Assembly (NCBI GenBank): GCA_028688995.1
Contig: JAQTXB010000004.1
Span: forward strand, 35,636 to 99,635
Source: Aliarcobacter sp.
Lineage (GTDB): Bacteria > Campylobacterota > Campylobacteria > Campylobacterales > Arcobacteraceae
Direction of reading: 5' to 3'
DNA: 64,000 bases
A model generated the notes under the pieces. The model saw nothing but the letters and a program-made list of their open reading frames with translations, was not told the origin of the DNA and ran no database searches. The position numbers and the translations under genes were made by a program. Each line of letters begins with the position of its first letter. Within the stretch, counting starts at the first letter, position 1. Shown one piece after another: positions 2,381-37,616 of this stretch.

Positions 2381-3736
2381 GTGAAAACAATAGACTTAGT
2401 GGAAAGAATTGAAGGTGAAGCAAAACTTCATTGTACTTGGGAAAATGAAAAAGTAAAAGATGCTAGAATTGATTTTTTAAATTTTAGAGGTTTTGAGTAC
2501 ATTTTAGAAGGAAAATCGCCTTTGGATGCTTTAGTTTATACTCCAAGAATTTGTGGAATTTGTGGACAAGCTCACTTAAAAGCTTGTGTTGAAGCTTTGG
2601 AAAATATTTATGAAAATATAAACGAAAAACTACAAATTACACAAAAAGCAAAACTTTTAAGGGAAATTGGTTTAAACATCGAGATAATTGATTCCCATAT
2701 AAAATGGTTTTATATGTTTATTTTACCTGATATTATAAAACTAAACTCTAATGATTTGGGAATTTATACTCCATTAAAAGGCACACGATGGATGGAAGCT
2801 CAAAAAAGTGCTAGTGAAACCATAAAAGCTCTAGCAGTGATTGGTGGACAATGGCCACACACTTCATATATGATTCCAGGTGGAGTTATGAGTGATCCTA
2901 CAAAACTTGACTTAATTATGATGCAAAACTATCTTCAAACTGCAATTAGTTTTTTTGAAAATTCAATAAGTGGAGTTTCTTTAGAGAATTATCTAGCTTT
3001 TGATAGTGTTGATAATTTGGAAAATTTAAATGGTGATTTGAGATATTTTAAAGATTTATCTTTTAAATATTCTTTAGAAAAGTATGGAAAATCTTATGAT
3101 AGATTTATAACGTTAGCAGAATCAACTCTATTTAAAAGTGGAAAAATAAAACAAAGATTGGTTCATAAATTGGATTTTTCAAAAATAGTTGAAGATAATA
3201 GTTCTACTTTTTCTATAAATAAAGAAGAGAATAATACAAAAAAACATACTTGGTCAAAATCTGTATCTTATGATGAACATTTTTTTGAAACTGGACCACT
3301 TGCAAGGGCGATTATTTCAAATAGAAAATTCATCAAAGATATTCATAAATCTTTTGAAGATTCATCATTTACTAGAATTCTCTCAAGAATTGATGAAATG
3401 GCACATCTACTTTTCGAAACTAATAATTTGATTTCTCAAATTGATATTTTAGAACTTTCATATATCAAACCAAAAATTTCTTTAAAAGATATAGTTGATG
3501 CAAAGGGTATGTCAGTTGTTGAAGCTTGTCGAGGTTCTTTATTACATAATATTACTATTGAAAAAGGTTTAATAAAATCTTATGATGTGATAACTCCAAC
3601 AGTTTGGAACTTAGGCCCACAAAATAAAACTCAAAAAGGAATAGCTCAAAAGGCAATTATTGGCTCACCAAATATTGAAATTGCTAAAATTGTTTTAAGA
3701 AGTTTTGATGTTTGTTCTGTTTGTACAACTCATTAA
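2381..3736 (+). CDS. Cytoplasmic [NiFe]-hydrogenase large subunit, group 2d-like, no C-terminal extension
   Basis: RIEGE, L1 PRICGICG, EACRGSLLH, L2 RSFDVCSVCTTH ending directly at the stop; GTG start. Confidence 0.9.
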   Translation: MKTIDLVERIEGEAKLHCTWENEKVKDARIDFLNFRGFEYILEGKSPLDALVYTPRICGICGQAHLKACVEALENIYENINEKLQITQKAKLLREIGLNIEIIDSHIKWFYMFILPDIIKLNSNDLGIYTPLKGTRWMEAQKSASETIKALAVIGGQWPHTSYMIPGGVMSDPTKLDLIMMQNYLQTAISFFENSISGVSLENYLAFDSVDNLENLNGDLRYFKDLSFKYSLEKYGKSYDRFITLAESTLFKSGKIKQRLVHKLDFSKIVEDNSSTFSINKEENNTKKHTWSKSVSYDEHFFETGPLARAIISNRKFIKDIHKSFEDSSFTRILSRIDEMAHLLFETNNLISQIDILELSYIKPKISLKDIVDAKGMSVVEACRGSLLHNITIEKGLIKSYDVITPTVWNLGPQNKTQKGIAQKAIIGSPNIEIAKIVLRSFDVCSVCTTH

Positions 3737-3750
3737 TGAATAATCATTCA
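3737..3750. promoter_or_regulatory. Palindromic operator candidate in the hydA upstream region
   Basis: (A)TGAATAATCATTCA(T); weaker copies at 3937-3950 and 3959-3972. Confidence 0.55.
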
Positions 3751-3802
3751 TAAAAAAGTGTATATAAGTAACAAGTTTAAAAAAATATTAGATTAATATC
3801 TT

Positions 3803-3829
3803 CTTAGGTAATTTTAGAACAAAAATTAT
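3803..3829 (+). promoter_or_regulatory. Asymmetric 27-bp box upstream of hydA, followed by a -10 (TAAAAT 3840-3845)
   Basis: CTTAGGTAATTTTAGAACAAAAATTAT is 26/27 identical to the reverse complement of 39687-39713. Confidence 0.65.
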
Positions 3830-3991
3830 TTAACCACCATAAAATCATTGAATAAAATCTTTTTTATAAAAATATGAGCATAAATGCTATCTTAAAGCTA
3901 TTTTAGGGCATTTTAAATTAAGTGAATAATAAGTTTTGAATTGTTATTTTACAATAAGTAAATGAACATTCATTTTTAAGGAGTAAGAGGT

Positions 3992-5227
3992 ATGATTGAT
4001 TCGCAAGATATGGTAAAAAAAGTTTTTACCCAAAAATCAGGGAAAGTGGAAACAAATAAGGGTGAAGAGTATTATAACTCATTATTTGAAAAAGTAAAAG
4101 ACCGTTTATCAATGTTAAAAGCGCAACCAGCACTTAAAGATATTGATATGATGGATGTAATAGAGAGTGAAGGTGTAAATAGAAGAGATTTCTTAAAGTG
4201 GGTTAGTGCTACAACTGCTACACTTATGTTACCTCCTATGTTTGCTCCATTAGTTGCTGAAGCTACTGAACTTATGAATAGAGTTCCAGTTATTTGGATT
4301 GAATTACAAGATTGTGCTGGAAATTCTGAAGCACTTTTAAGAAGTTCAGCTCCAACAGTTGACGACTTATTATTTGATGTTTTAAGTTTAGAGTACCATG
4401 AAACTTTACAAGCTTGTGCTGGACATGATGCTGATAAACAATTAGAAGAAGCAGTTGAGCATTTTAAAGGTAAATATTTACTTTTTGTTGAAGGTGCAAT
4501 TCCAATGGCTATGAATGGCCAATATGGAACAATTGGTGCTATGGGTGAAACATTCCATGATCATCTTGTAAGAATGGCAAAAGATTCAGCTGCTGTTGTA
4601 GCTGTTGGAACTTGTGCTACATTTGGTGGGATTCCAGCTGCTGCTCCAAATCCAACTGGTGCTGTTGGAGTTATGGATATAGTAAAAGGTAAACCAATTA
4701 TCAATATTCCAGCATGTCCTGCAAATCCTGCAAATATGGTTGGAGTTGTTTTACATTATGTTTTAACTGGTCAAATTCCAGAACTTGATTCACTTTTAAG
4801 ACCAAAATTTGCATTTGGTTATAGAATCCATGATAATTGTGAGAGAAGAGCTCACTTTGATGCTGGTGAATTCGTAGAAGAGTGGGGAGATGAAGGGGCT
4901 AAAAACAACTTCTGTTTATATAAAGTTGGTTGTAAAGGTCCAATGACATTTAATAACTGCTCAATTATTAGATATAACGAAGGTACTAACTGGCCAATTG
5001 GTGTAGGACGAGGATGTATTGGATGTTCTGAGCCACAATTCTGGGATAAATATGCTTATGAAAGACCAATGGCAGATGCAAAAATCAAAGCACCAACTGG
5101 TGGAGTTGAAAAAACTGTAGATGAGTTTGGTTTAGGATTATTAACAGCGACAGCTATTGGTATAGGAGTTCATGCAGTGGCATCAGCAGTTGCAGGAAAA
5201 AAATCAAATGAAGGGGAAGATAAATAA
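3992..5227 (+). CDS. hydA: Membrane-bound H2-uptake [NiFe]-hydrogenase small subunit (group 1b-like), Tat-exported, C-terminal anchor
   Basis: NRRDFLKW Tat motif at residues 63-70; ELQDCAGNSE; CPANP; CERRAHF; CLYKVGCKGP; GCIGC; C-terminal TM helix. Confidence 0.95.
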   Translation: MIDSQDMVKKVFTQKSGKVETNKGEEYYNSLFEKVKDRLSMLKAQPALKDIDMMDVIESEGVNRRDFLKWVSATTATLMLPPMFAPLVAEATELMNRVPVIWIELQDCAGNSEALLRSSAPTVDDLLFDVLSLEYHETLQACAGHDADKQLEEAVEHFKGKYLLFVEGAIPMAMNGQYGTIGAMGETFHDHLVRMAKDSAAVVAVGTCATFGGIPAAAPNPTGAVGVMDIVKGKPIINIPACPANPANMVGVVLHYVLTGQIPELDSLLRPKFAFGYRIHDNCERRAHFDAGEFVEEWGDEGAKNNFCLYKVGCKGPMTFNNCSIIRYNEGTNWPIGVGRGCIGCSEPQFWDKYAYERPMADAKIKAPTGGVEKTVDEFGLGLLTATAIGIGVHAVASAVAGKKSNEGEDK

Positions 5228-6969
5228 TGGCAAATAAACACTTAGTAATTGATCCAATTACAAGAATTGAAGGACATCTTAGAATTGAAGCAATTATAGA
5301 TGAAAACAATACTGTAGTAGATGCTTATTCTTCATCAACAATGTTTAGAGGGATTGAAGAGATTTTAAAAGGAAGAGACCCAAGAGATTGTGGTCTATTA
5401 GCAATGAGAATTTGTGGAGTTTGTACAGGAACTCACTATCAAAGAAGTATTGAAGCAGTTGAACATGCGTTTAAAATTACTATTCCTAAAAATGCAAGAT
5501 TAGTAAGAAACCTTATTCAAGGTGCTTTATATGTACATGACCATATTGTTCATTTCTATCATTTACATGCACTTGACTGGGTTGATATTACAGAAGCTTT
5601 AAAAGCTGATCCAAAAGCAACAGTTGCAGAAGCTCAAAAATGGGCAGCAGTTTCAGGTCACAGACCATGGAATGCAACAGAAGATGTTTATGCACAAGTT
5701 CAAGAAAGAGTAACAAGATATGTAAAACAAGGAAGACTTGGAATCTTTGGAAACGCATATTGGGGAAGTAAAGGATTTAAACTAACTCCTGAGCAAAACT
5801 TAATTGGACTTTCTCACTATTTAGATGCTTTAGAATTACAAAGAGATTTAGCAAAAATGATGGCTATTTTTGGTGGAAAAAATCCACATCCACAATCATT
5901 TGTTGTAGGTGGAGTAACTTGTGTTCAAGATATTAAAAATCCTGCAAGAATTGCTGAATTTAAGCAAATTCTAAAAAGAGGTCAAAAATTCACTAAAGAA
6001 GCATATTTACCAGATGTTTATATGGCTGGAACAATGTATGCTGGTGAAGCATTAGAAGGAATTGGTGGTGGTTTAGGAAACTATATGTGTTATGGAGACT
6101 TTAGACTTGATGATACACCATTCTATGAAGCAGCAAAATTATTCCCATCAGGAATTGTAAAAAACAAAGATTTATCAAAAGTATTTGATATTGACCAAAC
6201 AAAAATTACAGAAGATGTTACTCATGCTTGGTATGAAGGTAATACAAATTTACATCCATTTGAAGGTGTTACTAAACCTGCATATACTGGTTTTGGTAAA
6301 AAAGAAGACAATATTGCTTATCTTGATACAACTAAAAAATATTCTTGGATTAAATCTCCATTATATGATGACGAAAGAATGGAAGTTGGACCACTAGCTA
6401 GAATGATAGTAGGTGTTGCACGTGGTGATGAGAGAATTTCTAAATATGTAACAACATTCTTAAAAAACGGAAACTTACCAACAGCTGTATTATTTTCAAC
6501 AGTTGGTAGAACTGCAGCTCGTGCAATTGAAACAGAACTTATGGTTGATGTTATGATGGAATGGGTTGATGAATTAGCTTCAAATGTAGCCCATGGAGAT
6601 TTATCAACATGGACTGAATTTAATTTTGAGAATGTTTCAAAAGAGGCTCAAGGTTATGGAATGGCTGAAGCTCCAAGAGGTGGTTTAGGACATTGGATTA
6701 AAATCAAAGATGGAAAAGTAATAAATTATCAAGCGGTAGTTCCATCAACTTGGAATGCAGCTCCAAGAGATTATAAAGGAAGAATGGGTGCTTATGAATC
6801 AGCATTAATTGGTACAAAAGTAGCAAATGTGGATCAACCACTTGAGATTTTAAGAACAATCCATAGTTTTGACCCTTGTATTGCTTGTGCTGTACATATT
6901 GTTGACACAAAAGGTAAAGAATTAGGTGTTTATAAAGTAGATCCAATTGGAGGAACAAGCCGTGCCTAA
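5227..6969 (+). CDS. hydB: [NiFe]-hydrogenase large subunit
   Basis: DPITRIEGH, L1 RICGVC, L2 DPCIACAVH followed by a cleavable C-terminal extension. Confidence 0.97.
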   Translation: MANKHLVIDPITRIEGHLRIEAIIDENNTVVDAYSSSTMFRGIEEILKGRDPRDCGLLAMRICGVCTGTHYQRSIEAVEHAFKITIPKNARLVRNLIQGALYVHDHIVHFYHLHALDWVDITEALKADPKATVAEAQKWAAVSGHRPWNATEDVYAQVQERVTRYVKQGRLGIFGNAYWGSKGFKLTPEQNLIGLSHYLDALELQRDLAKMMAIFGGKNPHPQSFVVGGVTCVQDIKNPARIAEFKQILKRGQKFTKEAYLPDVYMAGTMYAGEALEGIGGGLGNYMCYGDFRLDDTPFYEAAKLFPSGIVKNKDLSKVFDIDQTKITEDVTHAWYEGNTNLHPFEGVTKPAYTGFGKKEDNIAYLDTTKKYSWIKSPLYDDERMEVGPLARMIVGVARGDERISKYVTTFLKNGNLPTAVLFSTVGRTAARAIETELMVDVMMEWVDELASNVAHGDLSTWTEFNFENVSKEAQGYGMAEAPRGGLGHWIKIKDGKVINYQAVVPSTWNAAPRDYKGRMGAYESALIGTKVANVDQPLEILRTIHSFDPCIACAVHIVDTKGKELGVYKVDPIGGTSRA

Positions 6970-7666
6970 CATTAAAGAGGTTAAAAGAATGACAGGAACT
7001 ATGCGAATCATACATTGGGCTAATGCTATATGTATGGTAGTTGCTGTTATAACCGGTTTATATATAGGTCACCCTTATTACCAATCATTTATTGCTGATC
7101 CTGCTGTGGATAAGTATGTAATGGCATGGAATAGATGGGGGCATTTTATAGTTGCAATTATCTTTGATGTAACTGCTGTAATAATTGGTTATTTATATTT
7201 CTTTTCAAGATTTGAAAAACCATATAAAAAACTAATACCAACTATAAAAAATATAGTTGAATTTTGTGAAGTATTCTTAAATCTAATTACTTTTAATAGA
7301 AGAAAGAAATTTGATTCATCACATAGTGATAGTTATAATATTGTATTTTTCACAATATTCCATCTATTATTAATATTTATGTTATTTACTGGACTTCAAC
7401 TTTATGTTCATGGTTTAGCATCAGGTGAGAGTTCTATTGGATCTTGGTGGCCTTGGATGCTTCACTTTACAACTGATTGGACTTTAAATGTATTTGGTGG
7501 AAATATGGGTGTTAGAATTGCTCATCATACATCAATGTATTTAATTCTAGTTTGGGTAATGTGTCATATTTATTATCAAATCTGGAGAACAATCTTCTGG
7601 AAAGAGGGTGACATTGCTATTGTCATTGGCGGAAGTAAGTTTGTAAGAGAAGAAGAAAAAAAATAG
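6947..7666 (+). CDS. hydC: Hydrogenase cytochrome b subunit
   Basis: RIIHWANA, RWGHF, RIAHH His ligands in TM helices; follows hydB. Confidence 0.93.
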   Translation: MEEQAVPNIKEVKRMTGTMRIIHWANAICMVVAVITGLYIGHPYYQSFIADPAVDKYVMAWNRWGHFIVAIIFDVTAVIIGYLYFFSRFEKPYKKLIPTIKNIVEFCEVFLNLITFNRRKKFDSSHSDSYNIVFFTIFHLLLIFMLFTGLQLYVHGLASGESSIGSWWPWMLHFTTDWTLNVFGGNMGVRIAHHTSMYLILVWVMCHIYYQIWRTIFWKEGDIAIVIGGSKFVREEEKK

Positions 7667-7673
7667 AGAAAAC

Positions 7674-7693
7674 AAGGGGCGAAAGCCCCTTTT
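7674..7693 (+). terminator. Intrinsic terminator between hydC and hydD
   Basis: AAGGGGC-GAAA-GCCCCTT followed by a short T run. Confidence 0.7.
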
Positions 7694-7711
7694 CATTTAA
7701 AGGTGTAATTT

Positions 7712-8305
7712 ATGAAAAAAAGAAATATTGTAATTGGTGTTGGAAATATGCTTTTTAAAGATGAAGGTATTGGTATTTACGCTTCTGAGTATATTAGTCA
7801 AAATTACGAGTTCGATGATAAAGATTTAGAGATAATTGATGGTGGGACATTAGGGTTTAAACTAATGGCATATTTTCAAGAGTATGACAATGTTATTATT
7901 TTAGATACTGTGTCTATTGAAGATGAGATAGGAGGAATTTATAGACTTCCATCTGATGTACTTTTAGGATTAGGAAACTACAGAAAAACAGCCCATGAGG
8001 TTGAAATTGTAGAGATGTTAGAAATAGTTTCTGTTTTAGATTCTCATGCAAATGTAACAATAATAGGGATAATTCCAAAAGATATTGAAAGTGTTCAAAT
8101 AGGGCTTACAAATGAGATGGAAGATAAATTTGAAGAGTTTATTTTAAATGGTATAAAAGAGATAGAAAGTCTTGGAATTAAAGCTACAAAAGTAAATGAT
8201 ATAAAAATTAGTGATGTAGTAAAAAGCATGATAGGAAGTTATAATGGTGAACATTTAACAAGAATCCCAAATGAAGAAGATTTTACCCATGCAATTAATT
8301 TATAA
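7712..8305 (+). CDS. hydD: Hydrogenase maturation endopeptidase
   Basis: IGVGNMLFKDEGIG, IIDGGTLG, KTAHEV motifs of the HyaD/HybD family. Confidence 0.95.
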   Translation: MKKRNIVIGVGNMLFKDEGIGIYASEYISQNYEFDDKDLEIIDGGTLGFKLMAYFQEYDNVIILDTVSIEDEIGGIYRLPSDVLLGLGNYRKTAHEVEIVEMLEIVSVLDSHANVTIIGIIPKDIESVQIGLTNEMEDKFEEFILNGIKEIESLGIKATKVNDIKISDVVKSMIGSYNGEHLTRIPNEEDFTHAINL

Positions 8306-31652: not shown

Positions 31653-33518
31653 TTGAATAATATTAAAATTAAAAATTATCAAATCTTTTTGTTTTCTTTC
31701 TTATTTAGTGTAAATATTTTTGCTTTAGATAAGTTAGATTCTACTCCTTTTGTTTTAACTCAAAATGAGAAAAATTGGATAGAAACACATCCTATAATAA
31801 AAGTAGGTGTTGATAAAGATTATGCTCCTTATGAGTGGCTTGAAAATGAAGAGTATAAAGGTCTTGCTGTTGATTATATGAAACGAATTGAAAAAATTGT
31901 AGGAATAGAGTTTCAAATAGTTAAAAATAAATCTTGGAATGAAATCATAAATATGGCCAAAAATGGTGAAATTGATATGATTACAAGTATTGTGCAAACT
32001 CCTGAAAGATCAAAATATCTTAATTTTACAGAATTTTATAGAAAGTGTCCCGTAATTATTATTGACAGAGGGAATAATGGTTTTATTGGAGGATTAAAAT
32101 ATCTTAATAATAAAAAAGTTTCTATTGAAAAAGATTATTTTATGGAAGAGATTTTAAGAACTAATTATCCAAATATAAAATTACAAGTTGTTGATAGCAC
32201 AAAAAAAGCTTTAGAATTGGCAAATTCAGGGGAAGTTGATGCTTATGTTGGAGATTTAGGACTTGCAGATTATTTAATTAAAAAAAATAATTTATCAAAT
32301 TTACGTTTTTCAGGTCAAACTGAATATTTTAGTGACCAAGGTTTTGCTGTTACAAAAAATAATTCTGAACTTTTGAGTATTTTAAATAAAGCTGTAAAAT
32401 CTTTACCTGAAGATGAAACAGAAAATATGTTTAATTATTGGTTGAGTGTAGAGCGTGGGATAGATGTAAAAACTATAGTTTTTTACATTATAGGTATAAC
32501 ATTTATTTTACTAAGTATAATTTATTGGGTTTATAGATTAAGAAGTGAAATAAATCAACGTAAAATTATAGAAGATAAATTAAAACAGAGTGAATCCCTT
32601 TATCGACAATTAACAGAAGATGTAAATGATGTTATTTGGAAAGTAAATACAAATTTTATAGTTACTTATATTAGTCCTGCAGATGAACGATTTAGAGGAT
32701 TTAATGCAAGTGAAGTAATAGGAAAAAGTATTTTTGAATTGTTTACAGATGAAAGTATTATTCTTCTTAATGAAAAATTAAAAGAGAGATTTGAATTATT
32801 GCAAAAAGGTAATAAATTACCTCCTTTGAAAATAGAACTTCAACATAAATGTAAAGATGGAACAATAATTTGGGGTGAAATTTTATCAAAACAAGAGTTT
32901 GATGAAAATGGAAATATTATTGGTTATCATGGAATAACAAGGGAAATTACTGAACGTAAAAAACTACAAGAAAAAATAGAACAATTAGCTTATTGTGATA
33001 CCCTTACAAAACTGCCAAATCGTCGTTCTTTAGAAGATAAAATAAATTTTATAATGTCAAAAAGTGAGAGAAGTCAAAAGTATTGTGCTTTGGTTTTTAT
33101 TGATTTAGATAATTTTAAACCACTAAATGATACTTATGGACATAATGTTGGGGATATATTATTGATTGAAGTTGCAAATAGGTTAAAAAGCAGTATTAGA
33201 AAACTTGATGCGGTTGCTAGAATTGGTGGCGATGAGTTTGTAATTGTACTTGATGAATTTGATGAGGATATAAAAACATCAAAAGAAAATATTTTTAAAG
33301 TAGTTGAAAAAATAAGAATTTATATAGCCCAACCATATAAATTTAGTATAATAAATGAAGATAAAGAAAATATAGATATTGAGCATCATTGTACAGCTAG
33401 TATTGGAATTTGTATGTTCAAAGGAGAACAAGAGAGTTCTATAAATATCTTCAAATGTGCAGATTCAGCAATGTATGAATCAAAAGAATCAGGACGAAAT
33501 ACTATTAAGTTTTTCTAG
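31653..33518 (+). CDS. Diguanylate cyclase: periplasmic binding-protein sensor, TM, PAS, GGDEF
   Basis: VGVDKDYAPY PBP domain; TM; PAS/PAC (GYHGITREIT); DTLTKLPNRR, DLDNFKPLNDTYGHNVGD, ARIGGDEF. Confidence 0.93.
   Translation: MNNIKIKNYQIFLFSFLFSVNIFALDKLDSTPFVLTQNEKNWIETHPIIKVGVDKDYAPYEWLENEEYKGLAVDYMKRIEKIVGIEFQIVKNKSWNEIINMAKNGEIDMITSIVQTPERSKYLNFTEFYRKCPVIIIDRGNNGFIGGLKYLNNKKVSIEKDYFMEEILRTNYPNIKLQVVDSTKKALELANSGEVDAYVGDLGLADYLIKKNNLSNLRFSGQTEYFSDQGFAVTKNNSELLSILNKAVKSLPEDETENMFNYWLSVERGIDVKTIVFYIIGITFILLSIIYWVYRLRSEINQRKIIEDKLKQSESLYRQLTEDVNDVIWKVNTNFIVTYISPADERFRGFNASEVIGKSIFELFTDESIILLNEKLKERFELLQKGNKLPPLKIELQHKCKDGTIIWGEILSKQEFDENGNIIGYHGITREITERKKLQEKIEQLAYCDTLTKLPNRRSLEDKINFIMSKSERSQKYCALVFIDLDNFKPLNDTYGHNVGDILLIEVANRLKSSIRKLDAVARIGGDEFVIVLDEFDEDIKTSKENIFKVVEKIRIYIAQPYKFSIINEDKENIDIEHHCTASIGICMFKGEQESSINIFKCADSAMYESKESGRNTIKFF
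33291..33514 (+). repeat. 224-bp direct repeat, copy 1 (3' end of the diguanylate cyclase gene)
   Basis: Matches 35358-35581 with 5 substitutions. Confidence 0.95.
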
Positions 33519-33526
33519 GATGGGAT

Positions 33527-33640
33527 TTAGTTTCGTTCCCAAGCTCTAGCTTGGGAATGCATACTTTTAGCAAAACAATATTTTGATTTATCTCACTTTT
33601 TTTATCTGCATTCCCAACGAAGACGTTGGGAACGAAGAAA
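33527..33640. repeat. REP doublet (REPIN-like) copy 1
   Basis: TTCGTTCCCAAGCTCTAGCTTGGGAATGCA ... TGCATTCCCAACGAAGACGTTGGGAACGAA: two 9-bp hairpins in inverted orientation. Confidence 0.9.
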
Positions 33641-33685
33641 AGTTATCGTTATCCCCTGTGACGCTAATGTTTAATGTTGTATTAT

Positions 33686-33946
33686 TCATCTTAACAATAA
33701 ATAAATTATACCTACAATTGTTAATATTATTAAAAAAAATATTGTTCCAACTTTATTTCCTATAATATCTATACGATTTAAATACAAATTCTTTTTACTG
33801 ATTTCTTTTTGACTAAAATTTTTATCTTTATTTATTTCTTTAGAATTATATTTCTCATATAAAATAAAAAATATAATAGAAACTATTATCACTGACAAAA
33901 TTATTTCAAAATTATTTATTAATATTGTTAAACCATTTACTTGCAT
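33686..33946 (-). CDS. Small two-TM membrane protein (86 aa)
   Basis: SD AAGGA; two hydrophobic segments around a Lys-rich loop. Confidence 0.7.
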   Translation of the reverse strand: MQVNGLTILINNFEIILSVIIVSIIFFILYEKYNSKEINKDKNFSQKEISKKNLYLNRIDIIGNKVGTIFFLIILTIVGIIYLLLR

Positions 33947-34005
33947 TTTTATTCCTTATCTTTTTTTGTAGTATTTTCATATAAATCTATAACACCATTT
34001 ATTGT

Positions 34006-34118
34006 TTAGTTTCGTTCCCAAGCTCTAGCTTGGGAATGCATACTTTTAGCAAAATACTATTTCAATTTGTCTTACTTTTTTATCTGCATTCCCAACGAAG
34101 ACGTTGGGAACGAAGAAA
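34006..34118. repeat. REP doublet copy 2
   Basis: Both REP hairpins identical to copy 1; internal spacer diverged from copy 1. Confidence 0.9.
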
Positions 34119-34268
34119 TGAGCTATTTTTTATAATTTTCATTTTGGAATAATATGCATTTTAATAAACTCTTGAACTCTTACATCATTATTATCTAATT
34201 GTATTTCTTTTAGAAGGTAACTTTTAAAACAATTAAACTGCCTATTTTTTCACTTCGTTTAACATTTA

Positions 34269-34565
34269 TTACTTCCCTTCAATTTTATTGTTTTGGAAGA
34301 CTTCTTTTTCTTTGTCTGTTAATGGAATAAAAAGTTTCTGATCAAATTCCTGTTTAGGCATATTTTTTAGATTTGTTGCTTCTTCATATTTATCTACTAT
34401 CCAATAAAGTGTAAAAACAACAATAAATCCAAATAATAAATTCTTTATATCTTTTTTTATTATAGAGAATACATATGATTTACTTTTTGTTTTATTATAT
34501 GATTGTATCCAAGTGTATAAATAAAAACCAATAATTAAAGACCATATAATAATTAATTTAATCAT
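34269..34565 (-). CDS. Small two-TM membrane protein (98 aa; start MIKLII)
   Basis: ATG 1 nt after the upstream stop; two hydrophobic segments. Confidence 0.65.
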   Translation of the reverse strand: MIKLIIIWSLIIGFYLYTWIQSYNKTKSKSYVFSIIKKDIKNLLFGFIVVFTLYWIVDKYEEATNLKNMPKQEFDQKLFIPLTDKEKEVFQNNKIEGK

Positions 34566-34566
34566 T

Positions 34567-34920
34567 TTATTTTTCTTCTTCGATGAAAATAAAGTTTGCA
34601 TCTTCTGTTATACCATATGTTGCACCTTGAAATTTTATATGATTCCATTGATTTTGGATATGTGCATCAATTCTAGGTTGAAGTTTATCTATTTTTGATT
34701 GTGACTTTGCATCATACGCTTCTTTTTGTAACTTCTTCCACGCTTCATTTGAATATCTAAAAGAACCCTTTGTTTTATCTAAAGCTGTGTCAAGCATTGA
34801 AGGAGCTAACACGAATCCTGTAATTCCTGACATTATTACCTCTTTTTCATTTATATTAATATCATTCCAATTTATATTATTCATATAAAAAGTTTTTTGA
34901 TTCCACATTTGTTCTGCAAC
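34567..34920 (-). CDS. Small soluble ORF: either an 88-aa protein from ATG 34833 or the 3' part of a gene truncated at REP doublet 3
   Basis: Frame stays open back to the repeat edge; SD GAGGT before MSGITG. Confidence 0.55.
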   Translation of the reverse strand, partial: VAEQMWNQKTFYMNNINWNDININEKEVIMSGITGFVLAPSMLDTALDKTKGSFRYSNEAWKKLQKEAYDAKSQSKIDKLQPRIDAHIQNQWNHIKFQGATYGITEDANFIFIEEEK

Positions 34921-35033
34921 TTAGTTTCGTTCCCAAGCTCTAGCTTGGGAATGCATACTTTTAGCAAAATACTATTTCAATTTGTCTTACTTTTTTATCT
35001 GCATTCCCAATGAGGACGATGTGAACGAAGAAA
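34921..35033. repeat. REP doublet copy 3 (right-hand REP decayed)
   Basis: Identical to copy 2 except 4 substitutions in the right hairpin. Confidence 0.9.
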
Positions 35034-35057
35034 AGTTACCTATCCTCTTTAGATAAA

Positions 35058-35094
35058 ATTATATTAAAACTGTGTCACATACGGTGTCACAGTT
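35058..35094 (-). promoter_or_regulatory. Candidate promoter pointing into the repeat array, with a tandem GTGACAC box
   Basis: Minus strand AACTGTGACACCGTATGTGACACAGTTTTAA-TATAAT then AAAGAGGA. Confidence 0.4.
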
Positions 35095-35131
35095 CTTTAC
35101 TTTTCAGAATTTCATTTGATTATTGGGGTTA

Positions 35132-35170
35132 TTATCTGGATTCCCAACAAGGACGTTGGGAACGAGGAAA
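35132..35170. repeat. Solitary REP (right half of a decayed fourth doublet)
   Basis: TTATCTGGATTCCCAACAAGGACGTTGGGAACGAGGAAA, 8-bp stem intact. Confidence 0.8.
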
Positions 35171-35357
35171 TAATTAAATTTGATTTTTAAATCATTAGTT
35201 TATTTTAGAAGTATCTTAATTTTATTTGTTACCTATTGTAAACAACGAGAGCTCAAATAGAAAATATATAAATTTACTAAATTGAGACATTTCATAAGAT
35301 ATGAATTAAAAAAATATAGTATATAAAGTTATATTATCAATTTATTTTGAATCTTAC

Positions 35358-35588
35358 ATTTTTAAAGTAGTTGAAAAAATAAGAATTTATATAGCTCAAC
35401 CATATAAATTTAGCATAATAAATGAAGATAAAGAAAATATAGATATTGAGCATCATTGTACAGCAAGTATTGGAATTTGTATGTTCAAAGGAGAAGAAGA
35501 GAGTTCTATAAATATCTTCAAATGTGCAGATTCAGCAATGTATGAATCAAAAGAATCAGGAAGAAATACTATTAAGTTTTTTGAATAA
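35358..35588 (+). pseudogene. Start-less duplicate of the diguanylate cyclase 3' end (direct repeat copy 2)
   Basis: Reads IFKVVEK...GRNTIKFFE* versus ...KFF* in the intact gene. Confidence 0.9.
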
Positions 35589-35630
35589 GTAGAAAATAAT
35601 TTTGAAATATAAAATTAAATAGAAGTTATA

Positions 35631-35659
35631 AATGGGCAAGTTTTAAAAACTTGCCCATT
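35631..35659. terminator. Inverted repeat overlapping the MCP stop codon
   Basis: AATGGGCAAGTTTT-A-AAAACTTGCCCATT. Confidence 0.7.
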
Positions 35660-37616
35660 CATCGTCATCTTTATCATTTGATGAAACTACTTTTGTTTCA
35701 CTTTTTGTATTTGTAATTGGCTTTTTAGTTTGAGTTGGAGTTTTACTTATAGTTTTTGCTGGTGCTGATTTATTCTCTAAAACTTTTGCTGTAACTTCAT
35801 CTTTTCCTATAAACTCTTTTGCATTAGCATTTGAAACAACTAATCTTGCAATTGTATCTGTTTGAACAGCTACTTCATAAGTTTGTGAAGCTATTATTGC
35901 ATTTTGTTGAGTTTGTTGATCTAGTGCGCTAATAGCATCATTTATTTGCTCAATTCCTGCTAATTGTTCTTTACTTGAACCTTCTATACTTTTTATAAGG
36001 TCAATTGTTTGTGAGATATTTTCATTTAGCATTTTGTAACCACTAATCATATCTTCTGATATTCTTTTTCCTTGGTCAGCTTTTCTTGTAGCAGTTTCAA
36101 CTAAAACTTTAATCTCTTTTGCAGCTTCTGCTGAACGAGATGCAAGATTTCTTACTTCTGCTGCAACTACTGCAAATCCTTTTCCAGCTTCTCCAGCAGT
36201 TGCAGCTTCAACAGCTGCATTTAGTGAAAGAATATTTGTTTGGAAGGCAATTTGGTCAATTACGCTAATTGCTTCATTAATTGCGTTTACTTCTCTATCA
36301 ATTTCATTCATAGCATCAGTTGTTTGATTTGCTAAATTTTCACCTTTTGAAGCTGAATCAGTTACGCTAGAAGCCAATTGAGACATTTTAACAATGTTAT
36401 TTGTGTTATTTGAAATATTGCTTGAGATTTCTTCAACAGCAGCAGCTGTTTCTTCTAAAGCAGCAGCAGCTTCATTCGAATTTCTATTTAATGTATCAAC
36501 ATTTTTTAGAAGTATATGACTACTTTCACCTAATGTTAATCCATTTGATTTATTTTCTACTAGCATATCATTTATTATATCTGCAAGATTATTTAATCCC
36601 ACAGTTACACCACTATTACACCCTTTGATTCTATGTGTAAAATCAAGACTTGCATATCTTTCAAGGGCAAAACTAATGTCATTGATATTTGTACAAACTC
36701 TTAATTGAAGACTTAATAACATATCATTAATATGATGTCTTAAACTCTCTAAACTTTGAGATTCTGTTTTATTATCAAGTCTTTTACTTAAGAATCCTTC
36801 TTTAATTGTTAAAACAATTTGATTTATCTCTTCTAGGAATTTGTTATCTGAATCAATTGCACTTTTTGATTTAGAGATATTTTGATTTACAACATGAGCC
36901 ATAGTTCCAAATTCATCATGGTTCTTATCATCTAACATTTCAACTGTTGTAGATTCTTTGTTTATATATCCAAAGAAACTTAATAAGCCATTTTGGAAGT
37001 TATTAATTGATGTTATTAATTGTGATGATAAAGCAAGTGAGAAAGCAACAAAAAATAGTATTGCAATAATTGCTAGTGTGATTAAAACAACATTCATTGT
37101 ACTAATTGCATCATCTTTCATCTTAATAGCATTACCATTTATTTGATTTAATAGTTTTTCTAACTCTAATCCAATATCAGCCATCTCTTTAATAGTAGCT
37201 AATATTTCAGGAGACTCTTTATCTATTGCATTTTTATAATCTGTTATTCTTTTTTGTGAGAATTTATCAAAACTTTGTATGTAATTCTTTGAATTTTCTA
37301 CAATTTTATTAGATAAATCAATATTTTCTTGTGCGGTTAATTTATTTTTAAAGTTTAAAACTAGATTATCTAAAGTAGAAAAATCATCTCTAACTTTTTG
37401 AGCTTTTGCTTCATCAGGAGTTCGTAAGAATTGATAAACAGAAATTCGCCCTTTTAATACCTGTTGAATAAATATATCAGTTTGGTTAGCTGCATTGGTT
37501 AAACGTTTTGTAACACCATCATAATAACTAAATATTGAAGCTGATATTATTACAATTAAAATAAAAGCCAAAGGTAAAAGCATAAGCTTTATTCGTGTAG
37601 AGACGTTTTTTAACAA
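35643..37616 (-). CDS. Methyl-accepting chemotaxis protein with C-terminal EWASF pentapeptide
   Basis: Two TM helices, periplasmic sensor, [34 protein letters not shown]; TTG start with SD AAGGA. Confidence 0.95.

Follow-up and report, generated by a model that had tools for sequence, protein, structure and literature searches.

A window of 64,000 nucleotides (nt) from contig JAQTXB010000004.1 of an Aliarcobacter sp. assembly (GCA_028688995.1) was analysed. Downstream of a GGDEF gene it contains a group of short hairpin-forming repeats, between which small open reading frames (ORFs) lie on the opposite strand. An earlier reading of this DNA, here called the original prediction, had likened these repeats to REPINs, inverted pairs of repetitive extragenic palindromes (REPs), which are mobilised by the REP-associated tyrosine transposase RAYT. 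According to our analysis, the locus very probably comprises three complete REPINs and a truncated fourth, which are gene-less derivatives of a RAYT (TnpA-REP, HUH/Y1 class 2) system.

Reading of positions 33200-35500 together with the output of a repeat finder revealed three doublets in register (33527-33639, 34006-34118 and 34921-35033). They are 113-115 nt long, with a distance of 53-54 nt between the two hairpins and a spacer of 44-45 nt between the 30-nt arms. Seven REP hairpins, each consisting of an 11-bp stem and a 4-nt loop, were found in the window, every one of them inside 33527-35171. Hairpin A (TTCCCAAGC-TCTA-GCTTGGGAA) exists in three exact copies and hairpin B (TTCCCAACG-AAGA-CGTTGGGAA) in two, accompanied by a degenerate version (B3) and a 'solo' version (B4). 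The flanking nucleotides are TTCG.../...TGCA for A and TGCA.../...CGAA for B, with the CGAA side oriented outward and the TGCA side inward. The A and B arms of a unit are 83% complementary and form the larger, imperfect inverted repeat that had been predicted. Both hairpins differ by a GC/CG swap in the stem, the top of which reads AAGC/GCTT in A and AACG/CGTT in B.

The claim of three units plus a solo half held for the three doublets. The 'solo' B4 (one stem mismatch, covariance-model score of 47.2 bits) retains a spacer-like stretch in the alignments and is therefore a fourth unit truncated at the A arm. The units do not form a tandem array. Successive units are separated by gaps of 366, 802 and approximately 55 nt (the last one to the start of the truncated unit 4 at ~35089), and the solo repeat (35129-35171) follows unit 3 after 95 nt. 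The DNA between the units is partly coding, and all of them are interspersed in a variable islet. Units 2 and 3 are 96% identical, with identical A arm and spacer, while the ungapped identity of 73% between units 1 and 2 is owing to a 1-nt indel. From the shared spacer of copies 2 and 3 a duplication order had been deduced. However, B3 departs at four clustered positions and its AGGA loop is that of B4, so that no simple duplication order can be read from the units.

Features of the locus (positions in the window)
Feature	Position	Strand	Remarks
REPIN unit 1	33527-33641	+	flank TTAGTTTCG, A1 33536-33557, 45-nt spacer, B1 33611-33632, flank CGAAGAAAA
REPIN unit 2	34006-34118	+	A2 34015-34036; B2 34089-34110
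REPIN unit 3	34921-35034	+	A3 34930-34951; degenerate B3 35004-35025, 24.8 bits
REPIN unit 4, A arm truncated	35089-35171	+	spacer-like remnant ~35089-35140; B4 35141-35162
224-nt direct repeat, copy 1	33291-33514	+	intact GGDEF gene (31653-33518), 3' end; gene ends ...KFF*
224-nt direct repeat, copy 2	35358-35581	+	orphan GGDEF 3' fragment, ends ...KFFE*, as expected of the native end
ORF, 113 aa	34567-34908	-	C-terminal part of longer metagenome proteins; 5' side cut by REPIN unit 3
ORF, 110 aa	34269-34601	-	small, hydrophobic; the probable start is the second ATG (34565; 98 aa), 1 nt past the stop codon of the upstream ORF
ORF, 86 aa	33686-33946	-	hydrophobic, between units 1 and 2, without family match

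A covariance model was built from 120 members of the hairpin family described below. The scan with this model, one of the checks suggested with the original prediction, returned the seven sites with scores of 24.8-51.2 bits and nothing else above 10 bits in the 64 kb, with filters off. The six intact hairpins scored 47-51 bits in the forward and 11-23 bits in the reverse orientation of the model. The exact hairpin motif (0 mismatches) was found at no other site of the 64-kb window, and no Rfam family matched anywhere in the window at the gathering thresholds. Target-site duplications were absent from all three complete units, the flanks of which are dissimilar as far as the TTAG edge. As single-stranded DNA, a unit is predicted to fold into two local hairpins (z = -4.85), and as RNA into a single long hairpin (z = -6.95). 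Hairpin A followed by CATACTTTTA received a terminator-like score three times compared with 0.5 expected. Only 9 nt separate the GGDEF stop codon from the start of unit 1. A secondary role as terminator or mRNA end at the 3' end of this gene is possible. A CRISPR reading was ruled out by the inverted orientation of the repeats, their irregular spacing and their local palindromes.

A hairpin family common to many phyla and the RAYT gene between its members

When one genome per species was scanned for the pattern CGTTCCCAA-N8-TTGGGAATG, at least 139 matches were obtained in at least 119 genome stretches from many phyla. By our own estimate, 18 fixed bases would match about 17 times by chance on both strands of the 596 Gb. 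Among the matches listed, the hosts belong to at least 10 phyla and include Verrucomicrobiota, Planctomycetota, Methylococcales, relatives of Thiomargarita/Beggiatoa, Cloacimonadota, Brocadiaceae, Ignavibacteria, Chloroflexota, Zixibacteria and Campylobacterota (Sulfurovum, Sulfurimonas, Sulfuricurvum, Aliarcobacter). The N8 centre of these listed matches is non-random. Both inner pairs are kept in 125 of 137 sites, by means of GC, AT, TA or CG, and the loop is TCCA, TCCT, TCCC or TCTA. The 5' flank reads nCT in 123 of the 137 members, and TT in the window.

Matches obtained with the model, independently of the pattern, display more compensated stems, such as CGCTCCC...GGGAGTG and CCCACGC...GCGTGGG. 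The latter is the REP type that the original prediction had mentioned from other phyla, and it is a variant of the same hairpin family. In an alignment of 143 distinct sequences, 99.0% of the stem cells pair, and five of the 11 pairs exhibit changes on both sides (74 compensated cells). The observed value was reached by none of 500 shuffles, and no slid register came close. As the pattern itself fixed 18 positions, the strongest evidence for pairing is provided by the two inner pairs and the pattern-free partners. Compensatory change in the stem, which had been proposed from the A/B swap, is real at the level of the family, and it shows that selection maintains pairing in the hairpin.

Doublets are present in other phyla as well. 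At many loci elsewhere (L020, L043, L051, L101, L110 from Methylococcaceae and others) four-hairpin units were observed, composed of an outer pair TTCCCAAGC...GCTTGGGAA and an inner, shorter pair (GGAAGCTCCAGCTTCC / GAAGCTGGAGCTTC) with a common AAGC-TCCA-GCTT core. None of the units in the window has this nested-palindrome build. On a few contigs classed as viral, with a GC content of approximately 40% (L127-L136 from IMG/VR, e.g. IMGVR_UViG_3300028193_000001), the REP occurs several times. No RAYT was found in the examined stretches of these contigs, which could be either a vector of spread or misclassified host DNA. Three pattern matches with a 54-nt period in Paenibacillus xanthanilyticus (L055, 3967-4112; low model scores of 31.6 and 24.8 bits in the two orientations) probably represent an unrelated tandem repeat.

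At several loci, the ORF adjacent to the REP begins with MGRSRYK. A phmmer search with this ORF identified relatives beside REPs in Sulfuricurvum (L103), in two metagenome-assembled genomes of Aliarcobacter (L066 and L033), in Methylobacter (L086 and L098), in Cloacimonadales (L047) and in Ignavibacteria (L107). The protein has a length of 177 aa in Aliarcobacter and Arcobacter. It matches the NCBIfam model NF047646 'REP-associated tyrosine transposase' with 105 bits in L066 and 96 bits in L103 (cutoff 80); the IS200 model NF033573 gave 17.8 bits only (cutoff 55). The Pfam model Y1_Tnp gave 24.1 bits for L066, just above the cutoff of 23, and 22.1 bits for L103, just under it. The L066 protein carries the HUH motif ENHLHMI and the motif NYIHQNP. 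The latter is of the Y-x3-NP type, the signature of class 2 TnpA-Y1 proteins (PMC6006769). Its only relative in the PDB is E. coli TnpA-REP (4ER8), and the alignment spans both the HUH and the Y motif. The family comprises 4,555 members at E <= 1e-10, some of which already bear the name RAYT in databases (Arcobacter cloacae, A. arenosus, Sulfurimonas).

The L066 gene is bounded by TTCGTTCCCAAGCTCCAGCTTGGGAATGCATAC downstream and by ATGCATTCCCAACGTGGACGTTGGGAACGAGGAAA upstream, which is the A/B pair of the window. The asymmetry, with A downstream and B upstream, and the inward polarity of TGCA both match the window units. L033 displays the same REP organisation around a decayed copy of the gene; at this orthologous site (2821-3213) an internal deletion took the HUH region and left 131 aa instead of 177. 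The arrangement REP(+)-RAYT-REP(-) was also detected in an Arcobacter cloacae isolate (L120) and in the metagenome contigs L121, L125 and L126, so that the REP-flanked RAYT gene, a search for which had been recommended, is known from six loci of close relatives. A cognate RAYT with the same REP flanks is present in L066, L120, L121, L125, L126, L103, L086 and L047. In L066, L033, L120 and L125 the site itself is conserved, beside an EAL gene. Identity to the Aliarcobacter RAYT amounts to 69% in Sulfuricurvum, 49% in Methylobacter and 43% in Cloacimonadales. Both REPs of A. cloacae are of the AAGC type, which indicates that the A/B swap is lineage-specific. When metagenomes were scanned for the exact 30-nt hairpin A, two contigs only were returned, both of them RAYT loci. 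A RAYT 59% identical to the Aliarcobacter protein was noticed at 1112-1633 of NZ_CP114587.1, a 562-kb sequence of Salinivibrio kushneri listed as a plasmid.

Gene-less units, their dispersal and the surrounding islet

Alignment to these REP-RAYT-REP loci (REPtrons) revealed the origin of the spacer. The left 50 nt of a window unit correspond to the downstream REP and the last codons of the gene, and the right ~55 nt to the gene leader and the upstream REP. The 45-nt spacer in between is a remnant of the RAYT 3' end and the 5' leader, and in unit 2 it matches the leader of the A. cloacae RAYT at 12 of 12 positions (ATTTGTCTTACT). Intermediates were found in two metagenome contigs. L126 harbors an intact REPtron and, at a distance of 1.2 kb, a 'proto-REPIN' of ~165 nt (1950-2116), in which a few codons from the start of RAYT and about a dozen from its end persist between two REPs. 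L125 contains one REP with only a 3' remnant of RAYT. Together, the spacer alignment and these intermediates demonstrate internal deletion as the origin of the doublets directly at the sequence level, and the alignments showed each window unit to be a REP-RAYT-REP unit minus its gene. Such a deletion would leave the type A downstream REP, ~15-20 nt of the gene 3' end, ~30 nt of the 5' leader and the type B upstream REP. In L125, the upstream REP and the RAYT 5' region are in addition tandemly duplicated beside the intact REPtron (1040-1194).

The most likely source of the window is a landfill metagenome (X7), which contains 95% of the islet words. Contigs of X7 without any difference span the islet at a depth of ~690-740. 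REP bins of the same sample reached depths of 2,600-8,300 at >=95% identity and of 12,000-39,000 at 80-85% identity, with many distinct flanks. As the REP depth is far above the value of ~700 for the strain and the flanks vary, other REP copies exist. These depths, which derive from a mixed Arcobacter population, suggest that a genome equivalent holds ~4-12 copies that are nearly identical, and related ones numbering up to tens. A cultured relative (X2, 90-95% identical) has gene-less doublets on at least four contigs, and no RAYT interior was detected in it. The original prediction had regarded local duplication as the remaining explanation in case the units occurred only here and relatives had no RAYT-like gene; differently flanked copies do occur, both in the same metagenomes and in the cultured relative.

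Downstream of the GGDEF gene, the REPINs are interspersed in a strain-variable 1.8-kb islet, which is missing from close relatives. The islet is bracketed by the two copies of the 224-nt direct repeat, which are 98% identical (5 differences). Contigs from X1, X2 and X3 lack exactly 2067 nt, corresponding to one repeat copy plus the islet, and at this empty site the GGDEF end is directly joined to the convergent chemoreceptor gene. The left junction of the islet, between the GGDEF end and unit 1, is supported by an X4 contig (33485-33554) with 0 differences, and the right junction by contigs from X7 (34981-35387) and X25 (34991-35666). Repeat copy 2 has a 90-nt deletion in X11, as expected of a dead fragment. 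Single nucleotide polymorphisms of the 224-nt copies form a mosaic with respect to the empty-site alleles and are uninformative on donor and recipient. RAYT-type (Y1) transposition would not produce a 224-nt duplication; in our view, it may rather stem from illegitimate recombination anchored by homology or from foreign DNA integrated in the Campbell manner. A comparison of the islet DNA with plasmid and phage collections gave no match. A strong terminator-like hairpin with a 16-bp stem (35628-35662, minus strand) separates the GGDEF remnant from the convergent chemoreceptor gene; at the empty site it probably serves as the native terminator in both directions.

Three small ORFs occupy the islet, two of which overlap between units 2 and 3 and form a truncated gene pair for a soluble (113 aa) and a hydrophobic protein. 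The 113-aa ORF matches six metagenomic proteins only, and three of these are N-terminally longer (146-187 aa). In L122 (567-1296), its homologue precedes one of the 110-aa ORF; more small modules are located downstream, including a second fragment with the same SQSKIDKL...FQG motif. No REP was found near the homologues of the gene pair in L122-L124. At the DNA and at the protein level, homology to REP-less versions stops at 34920-34922, which is the left edge of unit 3 (34922/34923). Contigs from X11 and X8 carry the missing N-terminal coding sequence (...VNVLDQTATQVAEQ-MWNQ) at that point and no REPIN. As the sequence past unit 3 does not resume the gene, unit 3 marks a rearrangement breakpoint and not a clean insertion. 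In X25, a REPIN lies beside the 86-aa ORF 46 nt closer than in the window. Searches against Pfam and NCBIfam assigned no family to the three islet ORFs or to the neighbours of their homologues, and exact-protein look-ups for the GGDEF protein and the 113-aa ORF found neither on record. The layout of the gene pair resembles that of orphan toxin/immunity pairs, which is a guess without family support.

Interpretation of the units and alternative explanations

By most of its defining features the element is a REPIN/RAYT system. Comparison of the genomes showed that the REPs flank a class 2 HUH/Y1 gene and that copies reside at several loci, which differ between strains. Several observations weigh against this interpretation. 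No RAYT was matched by phmmer in the 64-kb window, as had been noted before, and current mobility at this site is unsupported. The interior of an L066-type RAYT reached a depth of 14-38 in X7 compared with ~700 for the strain, which suggests, from assembled contigs of a mixed community and for RAYT DNA at least 80% identical to that of L066, that the dominant X7 strain probably carries no such gene. Copies number only tens at most, and those of the window are all clustered. A clean single-unit 'empty site' was not found, and the flanks of unit 3 do not rejoin. Finally, the 5' GTAG/GTGG tag of canonical REPs is absent, and CT (TT in Aliarcobacter) together with a TCY loop is found instead.

In other samples, islet and RAYT occur at similar depth (~17 and 18.7 in X4; ~45-49 and 60-75 in X25). 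The presence of RAYT thus appears to vary between close strains, and judging from these sequences the window copies are probably orphans in a source strain without a close cognate RAYT. The predicted match with REPIN/RAYT systems stands for the architecture and for the REP-flanked RAYT of close relatives; it does not extend to the canonical 5' GTAG nor, probably, to a close RAYT in this strain.

Other origins of the units were considered. All seven hairpins of the 64 kb reside at one locus, hairpin A scores as terminator-like three times (0.5 expected), and the GGDEF stop codon lies immediately before unit 1; these points would suit purely local segmental duplicates that are kept as terminators or mRNA stabilisers and are unrelated to transposition. 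Such an origin is very unlikely. The unit flanks differ up to the TTAG edge, which means that no larger segment was duplicated, identical hairpins exist at other loci of the same community and in other genomes, and the spacer holds remnants of the RAYT gene. A role as terminator may persist as a secondary use. We are also very doubtful that the islet is a REPIN-built mosaic, in which REP doublets are recombination joints that shuffle and truncate small, possibly toxin/immunity-like modules. Homology of the 113-aa gene does end exactly at the edge of unit 3, with the upstream coding part gone, and both the shortened distance between REPIN and 86-aa ORF in X25 and the REPtron-local duplications in L125 point in this direction. 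Yet only a single breakpoint is resolved, the gene module is found elsewhere without REPs, a toxin/immunity function has no family support, and deletions beside any hairpin-forming repeat would look alike.

With their 30-nt inverted termini and a size of 113 nt, the units also resemble ordinary miniature inverted-repeat transposable elements (MITEs) mobilised by the DDE transposase of an insertion sequence (IS). This is extremely unlikely in view of the missing target-site duplications, termini that are themselves self-complementary hairpins, and a full-length relative that encodes an HUH/Y1 enzyme instead of a DDE transposase. The probability is close to negligible that the units are attC-like sites of an integrase-less cassette array (CALIN), in which each minus-strand ORF and its downstream unit would constitute a cassette. 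The unit size of 113 nt and the imperfect inverted-repeat build are within the range of attC sites, the small ORFs between the units are all on one strand, and GTTGGGA resembles the GTTRRRY core. Integron-carrying phyla overlap with the host phyla of the hairpin family. However, each arm is a perfect local hairpin, unlike the arms of attC, and TCCCAAG/GTTGGGA do not fit the RYYYAAC/GTTRRRY cores. At seven or more loci the gene between these hairpins encodes a Y1 transposase, never IntI, the homologous gene pair in L122-L124 lacks any such site, and there is no tyrosine recombinase near the units.

For the REPIN/RAYT system we propose a mechanism by analogy with E. coli TnpA-REP (PMC3479197, PMC8266576) and with IS200/IS605. 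RAYT would bind the folded single-stranded hairpin and cut near its foot, with recognition via the 5' YT dinucleotide and the TCY loop in place of GTAG, and the doublets would be copied in trans. The GC/CG swap preserves each local hairpin and weakens the long A-to-B palindrome. In this genome, the REPINs might serve at most as passive hairpins, possibly at terminators or mRNA ends, and as substrates of recombination.

A tentative extension, to which we give somewhat less than even credence, is that one non-GTAG REP-RAYT lineage with the hairpin CT-CGTTCCCAAGC-TCCA-GCTTGGGAATG-C remained nearly unchanged while spreading over at least 10 phyla. If true, such a single cross-phylum lineage would contradict the view of REPINs as species-specific, vertically inherited populations. 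Arcobacteraceae would then display a full life cycle of intact REPtron, proto-REPIN, REPIN and orphan, and REPINs would mark the breakpoints of the islet.

Comparison with known REP and IS systems

A literature search combining REPIN or RAYT with Arcobacter or Campylobacterota found no relevant paper and none on Arcobacteraceae, in agreement with the original statement that little is described there. A search for the hairpin sequence returned only unrelated primer matches. Epsilonproteobacteria such as Sulfurovum have been reported to carry REPs (Di Nocera 2013, PMC3733652). The element is of a known kind, newly seen in Arcobacteraceae, and databases already name the proteins.

It provides a well-resolved REPIN/RAYT example outside the Pseudomonas and Enterobacteria models. 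The birth of REPINs from a transposase unit is readable in the intermediates, and the loss of RAYT with surviving orphan REPINs is visible between close strains. One non-GTAG REP beside RAYTs that are less than 50% identical represents a natural test set for the reading of hairpins by Y1 enzymes. The conservation of the REP across phyla could be the one aspect of wider interest. It also bears on the frequency of horizontal movement. For annotation, a confusing intergenic region and the adjoining truncated gene are explained.

The REPIN/RAYT systems of Pseudomonas and Enterobacteria (Bertels & Rainey 2011, PMC3116915; Nunvar 2010, PMC2817692; PDB 4ER8, PMC3479197) consist of the same inverted doublets of short palindromes with a spacer. 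Like their REPtrons, those described here contain a lone small HUH/Y1 gene with Y-x3-NP between the same REPs (Quentin 2018, PMC6006769), and the RAYT gene occupies a conserved chromosomal site in related genomes. Apart from the missing tag, the differences from the canonical systems are the low copy number and the apparent absence of a cognate RAYT from this strain. The residues E100/H101 and R104, which contact GTAG in E. coli (named in PMC6006769), appear unconserved in our reading of the 4ER8 alignment. Furthermore, described REPs are species- or genus-specific, whereas here the REP core is common to many phyla although the RAYTs diverge to 43-49% identity.

TIRYT/TIRtron elements and non-canonical REPs (PMC3733652; subclasses 2.1/2.3/2.6 in PMC6006769) likewise combine RAYT-like genes with repeats lacking GTAG. 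They also share the heterodimers, in which the partners differ in the stem; a 'heterodimer' preference is discussed by Di Nocera et al. (PMC3733652) and is matched by the A/B swap. In contrast to the long terminal inverted repeats with GGGGWSAS of TIRYT/TIRtron, the elements presented here have clear 11-bp hairpins and a short protein of 177 aa without a helix-turn-helix extension.

IS200/IS605 elements and their gene-less derivatives (PATEs) resemble the Aliarcobacter units in the HUH/Y1 enzyme, the subterminal hairpins, the lack of target duplication and the formation of derivatives by internal deletion. Membership in this group was rejected on account of the NF033573 score (17.8 bits, cutoff 55) and the inverted hairpins. 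The end hairpins of IS200/IS605 have the same orientation and the transposase carries Y-x3-Q, whereas inverted hairpins and Y-x3-NP characterise the system found here.

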